Of a DNA stretch of 25,890 bases, positions 6,980 through 24,040 are shown in pieces. Position 1 is the stretch's first letter; each line of letters begins with the position of its first letter. The notes beneath the pieces were generated by a model that was given only the letters and a program-made list of their open reading frames with translations, had not been told where the DNA came from and searched no databases. Source of the DNA: a virus. The stretch lies in the UHGV virus genome UHGV-0306558; one strand, 5' to 3'. The position numbers were made by a program, and so were the translations under genes.

Positions 6980-6997
6980 AGGTGGGTCCTATTTATT
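6965..6997. terminator. Bidirectional terminator between convergent mnt and lipoprotein gene
   Basis: Hairpin CCCACC-TGAA-GGTGGG (6971-6986) flanked by AAAAAA upstream and TCCTATTTATT downstream. Confidence 0.7.
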
Positions 6998-7415
6998 AGT
7001 CTTGCTTTGTTGATGGTATAAGAGATGCGTTTGCCTCTTTTGGCTTCAAGGTATACATTCCACCATTAAATGGATCTACAGCAAGCCAACCAATTAACCC
7101 ACCAAACACAAGGTTCCCACCAATATACCAACCATTAGCATTGGCTTTGATTGGCAGGGTAACTGGTTCATACCCATCCTTCTCCATAGTGATCTGGTAG
7201 TTCTTTTTGCCAAAATAGCTACCATCTGACTTGGCGAGCGTTACACCTTGTGGGGTCCTACCTTGCGCAACAATCACACCTGACTCATCTTTTACCTTAA
7301 AGCTCGCGCCAGAAGGATTGCTGTTCACTTGCACAAGTTGCGTTTCATCACCAACAATAGTTGCGCACCCAGATAACATCATAGCGCCAGCAACGACGCC
7401 AATAATCCTCTTCAT
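6996..7415 (-). CDS. Putative lipoprotein with PEGA-like motif; accessory gene in the P22 sieA slot
   Basis: MKRIIGVVAGAMMLSGC has a signal peptide and lipobox L-S-G-C. Downstream PSGASFKVKDESGVIVAQGRTP resembles a PEGA-type beta motif. Region is AT-rich relative to neighbours. Start at 7415 (ATG) preferred over 7427. Confidence 0.6.
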   Translation of the reverse strand: MKRIIGVVAGAMMLSGCATIVGDETQLVQVNSNPSGASFKVKDESGVIVAQGRTPQGVTLAKSDGSYFGKKNYQITMEKDGYEPVTLPIKANANGWYIGGNLVFGGLIGWLAVDPFNGGMYTLKPKEANASLIPSTKQD

Positions 7416-7532
7416 ATCAATTTCCATATTTAAAAAACCGGAAACATCCTAATGACAAACCATTCAAATGTGAAGTAGGCAAAAGATGTTTACTTTTTTC
7501 ATGGTATCCTGCTCAAAACTAAGGAGGTTGGT

Positions 7533-19456: not shown

Positions 19457-20956
19457 TTAAGTTCTCCGTGCGATGGGCCTGATTGGGGCTGGTATCTTTT
19501 TCTCTTTTGGTTTTTTGATGTCGCGCATCATTTTTGCGAAGCGGCGCATCATGTATGCATAGCGAACGGCGGATAGCACGTCGTCGTTAAGCTTGACGAT
19601 TTTCCCGTTTTCATCACGGTGATAGAGGCGGAACTCCTCAAAGAATGGCTCACAGGTGTTGAATACTTTGAAGCGACCATCGAGCATCATGTCTCGCAAT
19701 TCAGTGATGCCAGGCTCAACAGCATTACCGCCATCAGGCCATGTCGCATGCTCCTGCAACATCATAAAACCAGCGTCGGCATACTGCCCTTTGAGCTGCT
19801 CACCGCCGCCCTTCTCATGCTGGTTTCCGTCATGAGGCCATGCGGTTGGCACTTTATGCGCCCATGATTTAACGGCTCCCCACGCCTGAACGGCTGTTTT
19901 TTCTTTCGCCTTCCACACGCGTGAAACGTAGATTATGTCTGCGTCCTTATCCCACCAAAGCTGAACCTGCGCCTGAGGGTGATCCCATCCGAAATCCATC
20001 CCGCCAATTACGTAGAAGTGATCAGGACACTCGAACGGCTGACACTTAATCGTCTCTTCCGGTATCTGGAAGATTCGACCACTACCCATCGTAGGAATAC
20101 CGCGAGCACGCGCCTCTCTCTCATGCTCGGGATAGGATGCGATGATTTGCTCTTTCTGCTCTTCGGTATAGTGCTCAGCGTCATAGATGGTCATGTTGAC
20201 CACTTTCTGCGACTTGCTGGGGTTCTTCAGGAACTTGGTAACAACGTCAGACATCCCCATCAGCGGGGTAAACGTCAGAATTGAGAATTGCCCGTATTTG
20301 TTGGTACGGGTAAGGCCTTCGCCATAAATGCTGTATGGTGGCTCTTCGTCAAACCACACGCCGTGGATTGTGTCACCCTGCCAGCGAGCACGGCCTTGCG
20401 AGTATGGCTTGAAGTAGCAGATTGAAATACCATCTTCAACGCCATCAGCCGTGTGATGCTTAACCAGAAGATGATCAACAAGGTTCGGAAAGAAAGGAGA
20501 CTTCTTCCAGCTAATGATGTCTTCTTTCGGTATGGAACCGTAGCCAGGCTCATCATTCTCTTCGATACGACCACACAGGATGCGTTGAGTCGTTTTGGTT
20601 ACAGTCTCGTTTGTCTCGCCGCCAATCCAGAAGACAACAGGCTCATAGAAACGCTTACCTTTCCACTCACCGCCATATTTACCATCAGCAGGATAGCCTT
20701 TTGTGCCCGGATAACGCCCGGTAAGGTGAAACGCGACTTCAGCAGCACCAGTAAATGACTTACCAAGCTGGTTACCAGCCATAAAACATCGCTCTGGATA
20801 GTCATGTCCGGCGTCGATGAACTCACGCTGTTTGCTGTATGGCGTAAATTCATATAGCAGGTGTGTGTTCCGGTAGTTCTCTTCTTCTTCGAGTAGCTCG
20901 AGCAACTCGATTTGCTCTTCGTCGCTCAGGTTATCAAGAATCGCGTCCAGTTCCAC
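19457..20956 (-). CDS. Terminase large subunit, P22 gp2-like
   Basis: 499 aa, (M)[36 protein letters not shown]... Start is GTG at 20956, preceded by AAGGAG. Confidence 0.92.
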
Positions 20957-21422
20957 GGTTGAATAGCTCCTTGATACGAGAGCGCCGCTTATCGCGATCT
21001 CCCTTATCAGGCGTCACGTCTTCAACTTGCGACTGCTCTTTGAGGCCCAAATCACGGGCGATGATGTTAGCGTTGAGAAGGTCAGCGGCTGCGCCAGAGA
21101 ATTTCTGGTCGTAGATGATGTCTTCCGCTCGTGATGTGACGTCAGAAAAACCTTCCATTGACCGGAAGGTTCCCCATGTTTGCCTGGTGATATCAAGGAA
21201 GGTACACAATCCTGAAATAGTCATGGCTCGCATCTTAGGGACATTAGCCTTAATTATTTCTCCCTGATATGAAAATACCTTACCCTCCCATAGCGGGTTA
21301 TCATCAGCCCACTCGAAGTATTCACAACAAGCAGCCCACAGCGCCTCAGGCGATTCGAATTTAGGATTTCGCCCATGACTACTGCGGGCCTCCCAAAATC
21401 GGTTGCCCTTTGGTGCTGCCAT
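20934..21422 (-). CDS. Terminase small subunit, P22 gp3-like
   Basis: 162 aa; [38 protein letters not shown] and C-terminus [38 protein letters not shown] match P22 gp3 as recalled. Central part diverges. Confidence 0.9.
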
Positions 21423-21427
21423 ATTGA

Positions 21428-21517
21428 TTATTTCCCTTCTGCTTGCTTATCCCATTCATCGCGGAATTTGGATGGGTTGTCGAAGCCCTGAGAGCCTGAA
21501 CAAACTTTGATTACCAT
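21428..21517 (-). CDS. Tiny ORF (29 aa) translationally coupled just upstream of the terminase small subunit gene
   Basis: [29 protein letters not shown]; its ATG overlaps the upstream stop (TAATG) and GGAG lies 7 nt upstream. Below the 60-aa cutoff of the ORF track. Confidence 0.3.
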
Positions 21518-21711
21518 TACTTAGCTCCTTTCTGCTTGCCTGTGTTTGATGTCGTTTCAGCAGCAGCCCCAGAGCAATTAACGCTACCCGCAACACCATA
21601 TCCATAACCAGTCTTGAAGAAATTTTTGCCAGTAAATTGGTTAACAATCTTCCCGCAGCACGGGCAGCGTTGGCATTGGCAATAAGGGGATTGATTATTC
21701 CAGTGATACAT
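21517..21711 (-). CDS. Small Cys-rich protein (64 aa), unknown function
   Basis: MYHWNNQSPYCQCQRCPCCGKIVNQFTGKNFFKTGYGYGVAGSVNCSGAAAETTSNTGKQKGAK. ATG 21711 preceded by AGGAG at 7-8 nt. Five Cys in CxCxxCxCC suggest metal binding. Confidence 0.45.
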   Translation of the reverse strand: MYHWNNQSPYCQCQRCPCCGKIVNQFTGKNFFKTGYGYGVAGSVNCSGAAAETTSNTGKQKGAK

Positions 21712-22084
21712 CTTGTTTCTCCTGAATGAATGGCAGGAAGTGATTAACCATCCTGTCCAGCATGTAACAGTACGTCTCGTTGGCATCTTCAGGCCTTGTC
21801 GTCACGCCGACATCAGAGCAAACGTAAAAGCAGACGTGGGCGCACTCATGAACGAGCGTAGCGATCTGCTGATCGAATACTCCAATCAGATAGCATCGCT
21901 CACCCGTATCAGTGTTTTCATAGTTGCTTGCAAACCCAAGATTGAATGGCTTCTCATCCCCGCTGCCGCCAAGGAATTTATCAGCGTGCTGAAACTGTTC
22001 TCTGGTTGTTGCGAGGTAGACATGTGCACTTTGAAACAGCGGAATGGTGAACGCCGGGAGTTTGTGCCATTTGGCCTTAGCCAT
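21695..22084 (-). CDS. Hypothetical protein with HExxH motif (possible small zinc metallopeptidase-like fold)
   Basis: 129 aa; motif LVHECAHV at residues ~87-94. GGAG upstream; tightly packed after the preceding ORF. Confidence 0.55.
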   Translation of the reverse strand: MAKAKWHKLPAFTIPLFQSAHVYLATTREQFQHADKFLGGSGDEKPFNLGFASNYENTDTGERCYLIGVFDQQIATLVHECAHVCFYVCSDVGVTTRPEDANETYCYMLDRMVNHFLPFIQEKQDVSLE

Positions 22085-22085
22085 A

Positions 22086-22328
22086 TCACACTCCAGCAGT
22101 GAACAGGTCTAACGCTTCCTTCGACTTACGCACCGCTTCGATAGTGCGGGTCGTGATATCTGAATTAGCGCCACCTGACTGGAAGTGAATTTTGAATAGC
22201 TCAAGCTTCAACTCGTCAGTGCCAATGAACTGAAATGCTTCTTCTGCGGCTGCGTTCTGGTTCATGACCAGTTTGTAAATCTCTAACTGGAATTTCTGTT
22301 CTTCAGTCATGGGAATAATCTCTGCCAT
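22086..22328 (-). CDS. Hypothetical 80-aa protein
   Basis: ATG 22328 with GGAG 6-7 nt upstream; helical-looking product. No recognisable family. Confidence 0.5.
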   Translation of the reverse strand: MAEIIPMTEEQKFQLEIYKLVMNQNAAAEEAFQFIGTDELKLELFKIHFQSGGANSDITTRTIEAVRKSKEALDLFTAGV

Positions 22329-22622
22329 TGTTGGCTCCGTTTATCCGTTAAAAGGGATATCAGTTAAGTTATCCCGTGTAGGGTATAAGCCATTGTCGAG
22401 ACCACTCATTGAATGGTCTCTGCAATAACCGATGTCTTTCCATCAGTACGCCACCACAAAGAATCTTTTTTGCCATAAGGCTGGAGGTTCATCTTTCAGT
22501 GGCTGCCAGTGTTATTTCCCCACTTACTGGCTTGGGTTGTTTCGCTGTACTGCCGTAACTGGTTACCCAGAATAAATTCCGGTTTCATTATCAAGCCCAC
22601 CCGTAGATAGGCTTTGTAATGG

Positions 22623-22910
22623 CTACTTCTTCAGAACTGATTCGATGAATTCACGTCGGGGATGACGATAGTTCAGAATATCTTCTGGCATCCTCATAAA
22701 GCGGTTGTTGCCGTCTTTGGCAGTAACAAAACAGCTGTGAACTCCGCAGACATCCGTTTTGATTGTGTCGCTATACTCAAAAAGCAACTGAGCCATCTTC
22801 TCTTGCCATTCTGGCGGCATAGCCTCCATGAATACTCGCGGCATCACGCAGAACGGCGCATGCGTAAGACCAAACCACAGTTGCAGGTCTTTACGATATT
22901 CTTCATCCAT
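22623..22910 (-). CDS. Hypothetical 95-aa protein
   Basis: MDEEYRKDLQLWFGLTHAPFCVMPRVFMEAMPPEWQEKMAQLLFEYSDTIKTDVCGVHSCFVTAKDGNNRFMRMPEDILNYRHPRREFIESVLKK. The track ORF starts at TTG 23030 and would run through a terminator-like hairpin, so ATG 22910 is preferred. Confidence 0.45.
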   Translation of the reverse strand: MDEEYRKDLQLWFGLTHAPFCVMPRVFMEAMPPEWQEKMAQLLFEYSDTIKTDVCGVHSCFVTAKDGNNRFMRMPEDILNYRHPRREFIESVLKK

Positions 22911-22931
22911 CGTCTTTACCTTTGTTGCAAT

Positions 22932-22954
22932 AAAAAGCCCCGCAAATGCGAGGC
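22932..22954 (-). terminator. Intrinsic-terminator-like hairpin plus U-run, 20 nt upstream of the 95-aa ORF
   Basis: Minus-strand RNA: GCCUCGC-AUUU-GCGGGGC (7-bp stem with one G-U pair) followed by UUUUUAUU. Confidence 0.45.
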
Positions 22955-23129
22955 TAAATCCTGGTATTTGTAATGAACTGGCTCTTATCTCAACGCGGCC
23001 CCTTACCGCGCGCCAGATGCTCAATATCAAGCATCAGCAATGAGATGTTTAATCTGGATTCACTCCAGAAGTGTTCACCACCCTGCCTACAGAGCCAGAT
23101 GTGAAGGATGATGAGTAAAATTATCGCTA

Positions 23130-23567
23130 TCATCGAAGGCATTGCGTCCTGATGTACTCCTGCAGGTAGTTAACCTGCGCGGTTATCCTGTCTATTCCAC
23201 TTCGGAGACGGTAATAATTGAGTTCAGCATCTGCTGTAAGTCTTGGGCTTTCTCCATTGCCCATGCGGCTGGCTCCGGTCGTTGACTTTGCACAGGTGGC
23301 GGCGACTTGCAGGCGCTTACGGCCAGCAGAAACATCATCACGGAGACTTTCGATAGTCGCGTTAGCATCAGCAAGCTCCTTTGTGTATCTGGCGTCGAGT
23401 TCTGCTACGTCACGTTGACGCTTCTGCATGTCAGCGATTGTGGATGCGGCCTTATCTCGCTGCTCTTTGTAGGTCATGGCGTTATCACGGTAATGATTAA
23501 CCGCCCATGACAGACAGACGATGATGCAGATAACCAGAGCGGAGATAATCGCGGTTACTCTGCTCAT
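23130..23567 (-). CDS. Rz: Spanin inner-membrane subunit (Rz)
   Basis: 145 aa with N-terminal TM helix ([18 protein letters not shown]) and coiled-coil periplasmic domain. Start overlaps endolysin stop (ATGA). Confidence 0.85.
23192..23368 (-). CDS. Rz1: Spanin outer-membrane lipoprotein subunit (Rz1), embedded in Rz in another frame
   Basis: [36 protein letters not shown]: signal peptide, lipobox LAVSAC and Pro-rich mature region, all typical of Rz1. ATG 23368 preferred over TTG 23374. Confidence 0.75.
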
Positions 23568-24040
23568 ACCTCAATCTCTCTGACCGTTCCGCCTGCTTCT
23601 TTGAATTTTGCAATCAGGCTGTCAGCCTTATGCTCGAACTGACCATAACCAGCTCCCGGCAGTGAAGCCCAGATATTGCTGCAACGGTCGATAGCCTGAC
23701 GAATATCACCGCGATCAATCATCGGTAAAGCGCCACGCTCTTTAATCTGCTGCAATGCCACTGCGTCCTGGCTTTTGGGGGAGAAGTCTTTCAGGCCAAG
23801 CTGCTTACGATAGGAATCCCACCAACGGGAAAGAAGCTGGTAGCGCCCGGCTGCTGTTGATTTGAGTTTTGGGTTTAGCGTGACAAGTTTGCGAGGGTGA
23901 TCGGAGTAATCAGTAAATAGCTCTCCGCCTACAATGACGTCATAACCATGATTTCTGGTTTTCTGCCGTCCGTTATCCGTTCCTTCTGACCATGCCACCA
24001 TATCGAGGAAAGCCTTACGCTGAGGATTAAGATTTTGCAT
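23564..24040 (-). CDS. Endolysin, lambda R-type lytic transglycosylase
   Basis: [75 protein letters not shown]... is very close to lambda R as recalled. SD GGGGTG upstream. Confidence 0.92.

Follow-up and report, generated by a model that had tools for sequence, protein, structure and literature searches.

What do the small genes between the lysis and packaging genes of a P22-like phage encode, and do they belong together? This question is raised by the virus genome UHGV-0306558, a DNA stretch of 25,890 nucleotides (nt) that is called the window here. Four minus-strand open reading frames (ORFs) of 80, 129, 64, and 29 amino acids (aa) lead in it from the lysis genes to the gene for the terminase small subunit (TerS). 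An earlier note, made from the sequence alone, had drawn attention to these ORFs, to their tight packing with Shine-Dalgarno (SD) sequences, to the HExxH motif in LVHECAHV, and to a CxCxxCxCC cluster, and each of these features is indeed present. The reading that we favor, with moderate confidence, is that the ORFs are four real, translationally coupled small genes, inherited as separate modules in a mosaic accessory stretch of a P22-like late operon, and that the second encodes a miniature gluzincin. The features in question, listed in the direction in which the minus strand is read, are the following.

22086-22328, minus strand: 80-aa DUF2560 protein, ortholog of P22 Orf80, HK620 HkbM, and Sf6 gp67
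21695-22084, minus strand: 129-aa predicted minimal gluzincin-type zinc metallopeptidase (PHROG 1365; Orf129 of ST64T and phage L, epsilon34 gp70)
21836-21850, minus strand: HECAH motif within LVHECAHV (H79, E80, H83), predicted zinc ligands and catalytic base
21776-21778, minus strand: E103 in "ANETYCY", predicted third zinc ligand, 20 residues past H83 at the start of the C-terminal helix
21517-21711, minus strand: 64-aa Cys-rich orphan ORF, with its start and SD inside the 3' end of the protease gene
21655-21681, minus strand: CQCQRCPCC cluster (CxCxxCxCC), five Cys within nine residues
21428-21517, minus strand: 29-aa ORF with a conserved core ending in (A/T)EG

The stop codon of the 80-aa ORF and the start codon of the 129-aa ORF are 1 nt apart (TGA, 1 nt, ATG), the 129-aa and 64-aa ORFs overlap out of frame by 17 nt, the 64-aa and 29-aa ORFs overlap by 1 nt (TAATG), and the TerS ATG at 21422 follows the 29-aa stop codon after a gap of 5 nt. 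Read from the sequence, GGAG or AGGAG precedes the ATG of each of the four ORFs by 6-7 nt. The 64-aa ORF has its ribosome-binding site within the 3' end of the protease gene, which makes translational coupling of the two probable. Promoter-like and terminator-like sites were looked for on the minus strand between 21423 and 22930, and none was found. Thus, the four ORFs would most simply be embedded in a late transcript that continues into the terminase genes. A near-identical arrangement is found in the chromosome of E. coli GPEC349-628, where the Prokaryotic Genome Annotation Pipeline (PGAP) calls only the 80-aa gene, labeled as a DUF2560 family protein, and the 129-aa gene.

The 129-aa HExxH protein

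The 129-aa protein is assigned to phrog_1365 (E=4.6e-37), whose function label in PHROGs is unknown. Homologs with 59-61% aa identity, all annotated as hypothetical, include ST64T Orf-129, phage L Orf129, epsilon34 gp70, and g341c gp66. Their genes occupy the same slot as here, after DUF2560/orf118 and before gene 3, but the gene that follows them encodes the head decoration protein Dec, which is replaced in the window by the Cys-rich and 29-aa ORFs. A large protein database holds 206 homolog clusters at 90% identity, from Escherichia, Salmonella, Citrobacter, Klebsiella, Enterobacter, Pantoea, Yersinia, Erwinia, Cronobacter, and other hosts, and this particular allele occurs in 27 of 5426 complete E. 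coli genomes. When a library clustered at 50% identity was searched with a profile, 877 clusters were recovered at E<=1e-3 and 238 at E<=1e-10, nearly all of them 100-190 residues long. PHROG 1365 is a large and uncharacterized phage family without a Pfam model or solved structure, although the superfamily to which it belongs is already known. A literature search on orf129, phrog_1365, and P22-like metalloproteases returned nothing relevant.

The residues that are conserved in this family point to a metal site. Among 37 close sequences (alignment A1), the invariant positions include H79, E80, H83, N102, and E103, and across 68 diverse representatives with a mean column identity of 19% (alignment A3), only G50, H79, E80, H83, and E103 are invariant. 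As a sequence pattern this is the gluzincin signature, consisting of HExxH and a Glu that follows the second His by exactly 20 residues. The same spacing and a similar "NE" context occur in thermolysin, where E166 follows H146 within "NEAISD". Minigluzincins such as proabylysin and projannalysin likewise combine HExxH and a downstream Glu in only about 100-130 residues.

Structure prediction agrees with this assignment. AlphaFold2, supplied with the family alignment, gave a model with a predicted local distance difference test (pLDDT) score of 84 and a predicted template modeling (pTM) score of 0.80, comprising strands 11-13 and 20-25, helix 28-37, strands 50-56 and 63-69, helix 74-92 with the HExxH motif, and helix 103-128, which starts from E103. 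The motif is thus placed in one predicted helix and the Glu ligand on the next, within the spacing of about 18-25 residues expected of gluzincins. The core of zincin-like metallopeptidases has been described as a sheet with an N-terminal helix, the HExxH helix, and a next helix bearing the Glu ligand (Iyer, Burroughs, Anand, de Souza, Aravind 2017, PMC5512222), and the order of elements in the model agrees with that description. Searching the BFVD predicted viral structures gave 26 matches at E<1e-3, all small proteins, from phages of Pseudomonas, Erwinia, Achromobacter, Ralstonia, and Acinetobacter, from crAss-like phages, and from others. The few named neighbors are labeled SprT-like, PolyVal metallopeptidase, or metalloprotease. 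An hmmsearch of PDB sequences with the A1 profile found nothing, and the A3 profile gave nine non-significant matches, all to zincins (myroilysin, peptidyl-Lys metalloendopeptidase, BMP1/tolloid) and all aligned via the beta-sheet and the HExxH helix.

Overall, the protein very probably carries a functional metal site, as predicted, on a zincin-like scaffold, and judging by its signature and model it is probably an active minimal zinc peptidase. The suggestion in the earlier note of a minimal metallopeptidase thus holds up in silico, through the invariant HExxH and Glu of the 68 relatives, the predicted zincin-like topology, and the metalloprotease labels among the BFVD neighbors. None of the outcomes that the note had listed as speaking against it was encountered (matches to well-characterized families with a non-catalytic HExxH, evidence that the ORFs are untranslated, or motifs that are not conserved among homologs).

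Several known groups resemble this protein without including it. The metallopeptidase domains of phage polyvalent proteins (PMC5512222) agree with it in the predicted order of core elements and are also phage-borne, and one BFVD neighbor is labeled "PolyVal Metallopeptidase superfamily domain". However, those are domains of giant multidomain virion proteins, whereas the protein here stands alone at 129 aa and has no significant sequence match to the described polyvalent clades. SprT-like/Wss1/Spartan proteins (PF10263) are also small HExxH proteins that are common in phages; some relatives of the 129-aa protein are automatically labeled "SprT-like", and some have similarly basic, Lys/Arg-rich C-terminal tails. 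The match of the 129-aa protein to PF10263 is below threshold (E=0.11, 12.8 bits versus a cutoff of 25.6), and only 1 of the 68 relatives reaches E=1e-4. Furthermore, the third ligand of SprT/Wss1 proteins is a His, at a place where PHROG 1365 members conserve Glu, and membership in PF10263 was ruled out by the sub-cutoff score and the lack of a conserved third His.

NCBIfam likewise provided no family above cutoff. The sub-threshold match to TIGR04267, the "aKG-HExxH-type peptide beta-hydroxylase" model, has E=0.0024 and 17.9 bits against a cutoff of 40 and is confined to residues 75-104. Because the window protein alone among the 68 relatives shows this match, it was treated as chance-level. 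Membership in the hydroxylase family (TIGR04267/IPR026337) was rejected, with 30 of the 177 model positions covered and 1 of 68 members matching.

The Cys-rich, 29-aa, and DUF2560 ORFs

The 64-aa ORF has a much narrower distribution. Only 6 protein clusters are known, its Cys-rich segment is present in 20 of 5426 complete E. coli genomes, and in all 17 loci it directly follows a protease gene ending in FLPFIQEKQ(D/S)(V/A)SLE. The same ending is found in Atlantibacter (L007/L033), although the rest of the protease there is the ST64T-like allele, 63% identical. This shared ending on a divergent protease indicates a recombination joint within the 3' end of the protease gene, such that the SD and start codon of the peptide travel with the peptide.

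Evidence that the 64-aa ORF is translated comes from how its copies have diverged. The frame is open in 13 of 13 distinct DNA variants, including one (L032) with GTG in place of ATG and the SD retained. Copies from the diverged loci L006, L007, and L032 carry indels of 6 and 18 nt that are in frame, and both the 64-aa and 29-aa ORFs stay open. Relative to L006, the most diverged copy, codons 1-28 show 5 synonymous and 3 non-synonymous changes in the 64-aa frame, versus 2/7 and 1/8 in the other frames, and all five changes within codons 9-28 are synonymous. For the C-terminal half, the synonymous and non-synonymous counts are 6/6 versus L007 and 6/7 versus L032, where other frames give at most 2/9, while the L006 and L031 comparisons are uninformative or opposite. 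Judged from these patterns, neither the 64-aa nor the 29-aa ORF is merely a chance occurrence, and the 64-aa ORF is probably a real, young, lineage-restricted gene.

Its product matches nothing in Pfam, PHROG, or NCBIfam, and AlphaFold yields no confident fold (pLDDT 41). The conserved five-Cys cluster is followed by a poorly conserved tail rich in Gly, Tyr, Ser, and Thr, and Cys46 is not kept in L006. The earlier note had likened this protein to a zinc ribbon, a resemblance that is not supported: there is a single contiguous CxCxxCxCC within nine residues rather than two separated CxxC knuckles, along with the low pLDDT and the missing Pfam match. The spacing is closer to the CxCxxC​xC clusters of metallothionein-type proteins. 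This likeness lies in the Cys pattern alone, as the 64-aa protein has one cluster in an otherwise Gly/Tyr/Ser/Thr-rich sequence, and no homology was detected.

Two other interpretations of this DNA were considered. A 49-aa hydrophobic ORF in the third frame (MDMVLRVALIALGLLLKRH..., about 21456-21605, minus strand) overlaps the 64-aa and 29-aa ORFs and is open in most close variants, and versus L031 it shows 4 synonymous and 1 non-synonymous changes in its own frame. It was rejected because a stop codon interrupts it in L006 and the hydrophobic segment is lost in L007 and L032; we judge it to be non-coding, and dual coding with the 64-aa and 29-aa ORFs to be unlikely. The fused variants P0123 and P0126 might hint at programmed frameshifting, but this found no support, as they are single-contig variants that are most simply explained by indels or assembly errors.

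The 29-aa ORF is known from eight variants of 23-30 aa, in all of which the ATG, frame, stop, and core are kept. The short form (L032 and phage E212) results from an in-frame deletion of 18 nt. Compared with L032, its frame shows 5 synonymous and 3 non-synonymous changes versus 1/7 in each other frame, and the core changes are mostly synonymous. Four different genes are found downstream of it, encoding a gp3-type TerS, a 141-aa TerS, a 110-aa ORF, and a Dec-like 172-aa ORF. It can be found apart from its neighbors, and in E212 it comes directly after DUF2560. No Pfam, NCBIfam, or PADLOC family was found for its product. Six variants give sub-threshold matches to PF10872 (DUF2740), with E of 0.05-0.12 and 12.6-13.7 bits against a gathering cutoff of 27, always through the same 14-residue core at profile positions 19-32 of 43; this is a lead and not a membership.

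The 80-aa ORF poses the least difficulty. It matches PF10834 over its full length (E=1.1e-43, 147.7 bits versus a gathering cutoff of 25, positions 1-72 of 72), is assigned to phrog_571, and is 94% identical in nucleotide sequence to P22 orf80. The statement in the earlier note that none of the four proteins resembles a P22 late protein was therefore wrong, and P22 also has an unannotated HExxH homolog, described below. A literature search on DUF2560 yielded passing mentions only and nothing on function.

Mosaic structure of the lysis-terminase interval

The window holds the late region of a P22-like (Lederbergvirus) prophage on its minus strand, in the order holin, lysozyme, Rz/Rz1, 95-aa ORF, 294-nt spacer, the four ORFs, TerS, TerL, portal, scaffold, and coat. 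The surrounding features, and a cassette that spans two of the ORFs and part of a third, are as follows.

23564-24040, minus strand: lysozyme
23130-23567, minus strand: Rz/Rz1
22936-22955, minus strand: G+C-rich 8-bp hairpin and T-run, downstream of Rz and a small ORF, the nearest to the cluster
22623-22910, minus strand: 95-aa ORF occupying the first variable slot past the lysis genes, matching only the C-terminal part of phrog_3527 (139-230 of 233)
21493-22090, minus strand: 598-bp cassette comprising the protease gene and Cys-rich ORF as well as codons 1-8 of the 29-aa ORF, absent from phage E212
20934-21422, minus strand: terminase small subunit of the P22 gp3 type (GP3_package; PF16677, E=8.3e-31; phrog_606, E=3.5e-71)
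19457-20956, minus strand: TerL

The cassette is delimited by a blastn comparison of the window with E212 (L004), in which 20901-21492 aligns at 99.2% and 22091-22622 at 97.9%, and nothing matches between. The pre-terminase slot of E212 thus has no protease gene and only the small ORF. P22, HK620, and Sf6 carry an unrelated ORF of 59-63 aa in this slot, also without a protease gene. Since the gene is missing from many P22-like phages, it is evidently dispensable.

Where the protease gene is present, its company varies. At 13 loci from the genomes of other species it follows the lysis genes, with or without DUF2560 ahead of it, and lies directly upstream of, or 1-2 ORFs from, TerS genes of several unrelated types. 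Its neighbors there include a Dec-like gene before the protease gene, a 73-aa Lys-rich ORF, a 212-aa ORF, a 56-aa membrane ORF, or none. The great majority of protease homologs have no Cys-rich ORF beside them, but have other neighbors (Dec, TerS directly, or unrelated ORFs) or none at all. The earlier note had envisaged a module in which a protease-like enzyme is joined by a small metal-binding protein, and the constant pairing seen from the side of the Cys-rich ORF is not reciprocated by the protease family. Likewise, the four ORFs do not generally occur together, as DUF2560 and the 29-aa ORF are each also found without the others. Thus, the locus is a mosaic of modules and not a fixed four-gene system.

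Other protease homologs reside well outside this slot. P22 has an intact homolog that is unannotated in RefSeq (NC_002371 13861-14226, plus strand, which is the late-operon strand), located between sieA and orf59a in the immI region. It encodes 121 aa from its ATG, with HECAH and NETYCY, and is 35% identical (E 5e-16). This ORF overlaps the annotated sieA promoter (locus L034 2362-2727), and other P22-like records list it as hypothetical, with one naming it a "GNAT family acetyltransferase". No second HExxH copy was found at the immI-equivalent position of the window. That region of the window contains, beside Arc/Mnt-like and antirepressor-like ORFs, a 143-aa ORF (6996-7427, minus strand) with a lipoprotein-type N-terminus (...MLSGC...) where P22 has sieA, and this ORF may be a superinfection-exclusion or surface moron. 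N4-like phages (phCDa, KP8) carry weaker homologs of the protease among their small early ORFs. Of four remote homologs, one follows a MuF-like head gene (L037), one lies between TerS and TerL (L038), one precedes a GH19 endolysin, and one follows a P22-type coat gene (L041). The second of these, on a metagenomic contig (L038 3493-5810, Logan SRR30067320), is wedged between a Terminase_2 TerS and TerL with overlapping starts and stops, an unusual site for any gene.

Just upstream of the four ORFs there is further variation. A second variable slot (22623-22931) is occupied here by the 95-aa ORF and elsewhere by a Rha-family, GIY-YIG, KilA-N, or different gene. The 95-aa ORF is conserved as a stand-alone ORF, with 99% identity in phage HF4s and 38-63% identity in phages of Klebsiella, Salmonella, Cronobacter, Vibrio, and Pseudomonas. 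Two genes in these slots of phage Huey are labeled anti-CRISPR by an automated pipeline; this is annotation only, which fits an accessory-gene zone, and the 95-aa ORF is unrelated to the "anti-CRISPR" gene in the matching slot.

The 294-nt spacer (22329-22622, minus strand) upstream of DUF2560 has a minimum free energy of -98.4 kcal/mol versus -70.5 +/- 4.9 kcal/mol for shuffled sequences (z = -5.7). It recurs at 80-99% identity in 207 phage records (P22-like, HK97-like HK446/HK106, mEp460, and Stx2 phages), mostly without annotation there, and in HK446 it lies between a KilA-N gene and the HNH endonuclease gene that precedes terminase. The spacer is itself a mosaic junction, with gene insertions at about 192-216 in Sf6 (gene 66), Huey, and three metagenomic phages, and with the 5' 60 nt swapped in others. 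An Rfam scan of 20800-23300 identified no RNA family, and the spacer could function in RNA processing or regulation, or could be "boundary" DNA for recombination. The hairpin at 22936-22955 lies inside a segment (22932-24023) that is 95% identical to a part of epsilon34 with an annotated Rho-independent terminator, and the late transcript presumably passes it via Q-type antitermination.

Proposed role and competing explanations

From these features we infer zinc binding, catalysis, the timing of expression, the class of substrate, and protein interactions as follows. The second gene would produce a cytoplasmic protein of about 14 kDa in which the His pair of HExxH and the Glu 20 residues further on bind zinc, with the Glu of the motif serving as general base. 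It would be active as an endopeptidase and be produced late in infection from the transcript that also carries the terminase genes. Its substrate is most likely a host protein and less likely a phage protein, which would make it a dispensable accessory effector. For the third gene, the five-Cys cluster suggests metal binding, and its product may modulate the protease, even though most members of the protease family work without it. The fourth would be a tiny conserved peptide gene at a recombination junction, ahead of whichever gene opens the packaging or head module. A bolder version, which we regard as a long shot, sees PHROG 1365 as widespread stand-alone mini-proteases that act late in infection to inactivate a host protein of the immune or stress response, such as one that senses terminase, portal, or capsid proteins; the Cys-rich protein would in this lineage be a dedicated metal-binding regulator (a "cysteine-switch" inhibitor acting in trans, or a zinc donor). 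PADLOC gave no match at E<=1 for any of the ORFs, as expected for phage genes, and no literature on an anti-defense role was found.

Several observations weigh against the favored reading. Pfam offers no family above threshold for the 129-aa protein, which is therefore without placement in a peptidase family, and HExxH proteins are not always hydrolases, as the alpha-ketoglutarate (alpha-KG)/Fe HExxH hydroxylases illustrate (PMC12636437). The location of remote homologs within packaging and head modules might instead point to a function in assembly or packaging. Support for the 64-aa ORF as a coding sequence is only moderate, since PGAP leaves it out, its close variants show several non-synonymous changes, and the L031 comparison favors the overlapping 49-aa frame.

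A serious rival, albeit an unlikely one, holds that the 129-aa protease serves virion assembly or DNA packaging rather than an attack on the host, either by processing a morphogenetic protein or by clearing DNA-bound proteins in the manner of SprT/Wss1 DNA-dependent proteases. Such a role would account for the persistence of the gene in enterobacterial prophages immediately upstream of, or within two small ORFs of, unrelated TerS types, and for the remote homologs next to MuF-like, terminase, and coat genes. The Lys/Arg-rich tails of several homologs suggest nucleic-acid binding, and the weak SprT-like matches are also in line with it. However, many fully functional P22-like phages lack the gene, the neighbors in its slot are swapped freely, the P22 homolog lies in immI, away from terminase, and the conserved Glu replaces the third-ligand His of SprT/Wss1. 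The lysis-terminase interval generally serves as a slot for accessory genes, which makes position by itself weak evidence; it can be read either as a tolerated accessory slot or as a hint of a packaging link. The patchy occurrence of the gene, its movement between slots, and its place among early genes in N4-like phages favor a host-directed accessory protease over a morphogenetic one. Far less probable is a metal-dependent peptide-modifying enzyme, resembling an alpha-KG/Fe hydroxylase and acting on the Cys-rich peptide like the enzyme and precursor of a peptide that is made by ribosomes and then post-translationally modified (RiPP). The peptide gene does overlap and always follow the enzyme gene, it has a conserved N-terminal part and a variable Gly/Ser/Thr-rich C-terminal part, and HExxH hydroxylases were long misannotated as peptidases (PMC12636437). 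Yet the TIGR04267 match that hints at such an activity covers just 30 residues around the motif in a single family member, the protein has 129 aa against a model of 177 positions, the vast majority of the family has no such adjacent peptide, and no transporter or other RiPP gene is nearby.

The remaining alternative concerns the two smallest ORFs, which might not be genes at all. Their conservation would then reflect recent common ancestry and "boundary" DNA at which mosaic modules recombine more readily, or else a leader that couples translation to the next gene. PGAP calls neither, three sequenced phages with the 29-aa ORF leave it unannotated, neither has a family assignment, the 64-aa product has no confident model, most copies are more than 90% identical, the 29-aa ORF sits exactly at mosaic junctions, and frameshift-fused variants exist. 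We nevertheless consider this rather improbable, given that both ORFs are open in every one of the 13 distinct variants with indels in multiples of three, that the SD is kept beside the GTG start in L032, that the three comparisons with the most diverged copies show an enrichment of synonymous changes in the proposed frames, and that the competing 49-aa frame is broken or altered in those same loci.

The favored reading, of a miniature gluzincin among separately inherited small genes, has consequences for phage biology more broadly. PHROG 1365 comprises at least 877 clusters at 50% identity with a perfectly conserved metalloprotease signature, for which no publication was found, and its occurrence in the model phages L, ST64T, and epsilon34, along with the unannotated P22 copy, makes a clean genetic test easy. 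The 64-aa and 29-aa ORFs illustrate how small genes of phages escape standard annotation. Should loss of the protease cause no phenotype, it would be one more dispensable mosaic gene. If instead it cleaves a host factor, a proteolytic mechanism would be added to the accessory functions of phages, and the lysis-terminase slot would be confirmed as a place to look for them.

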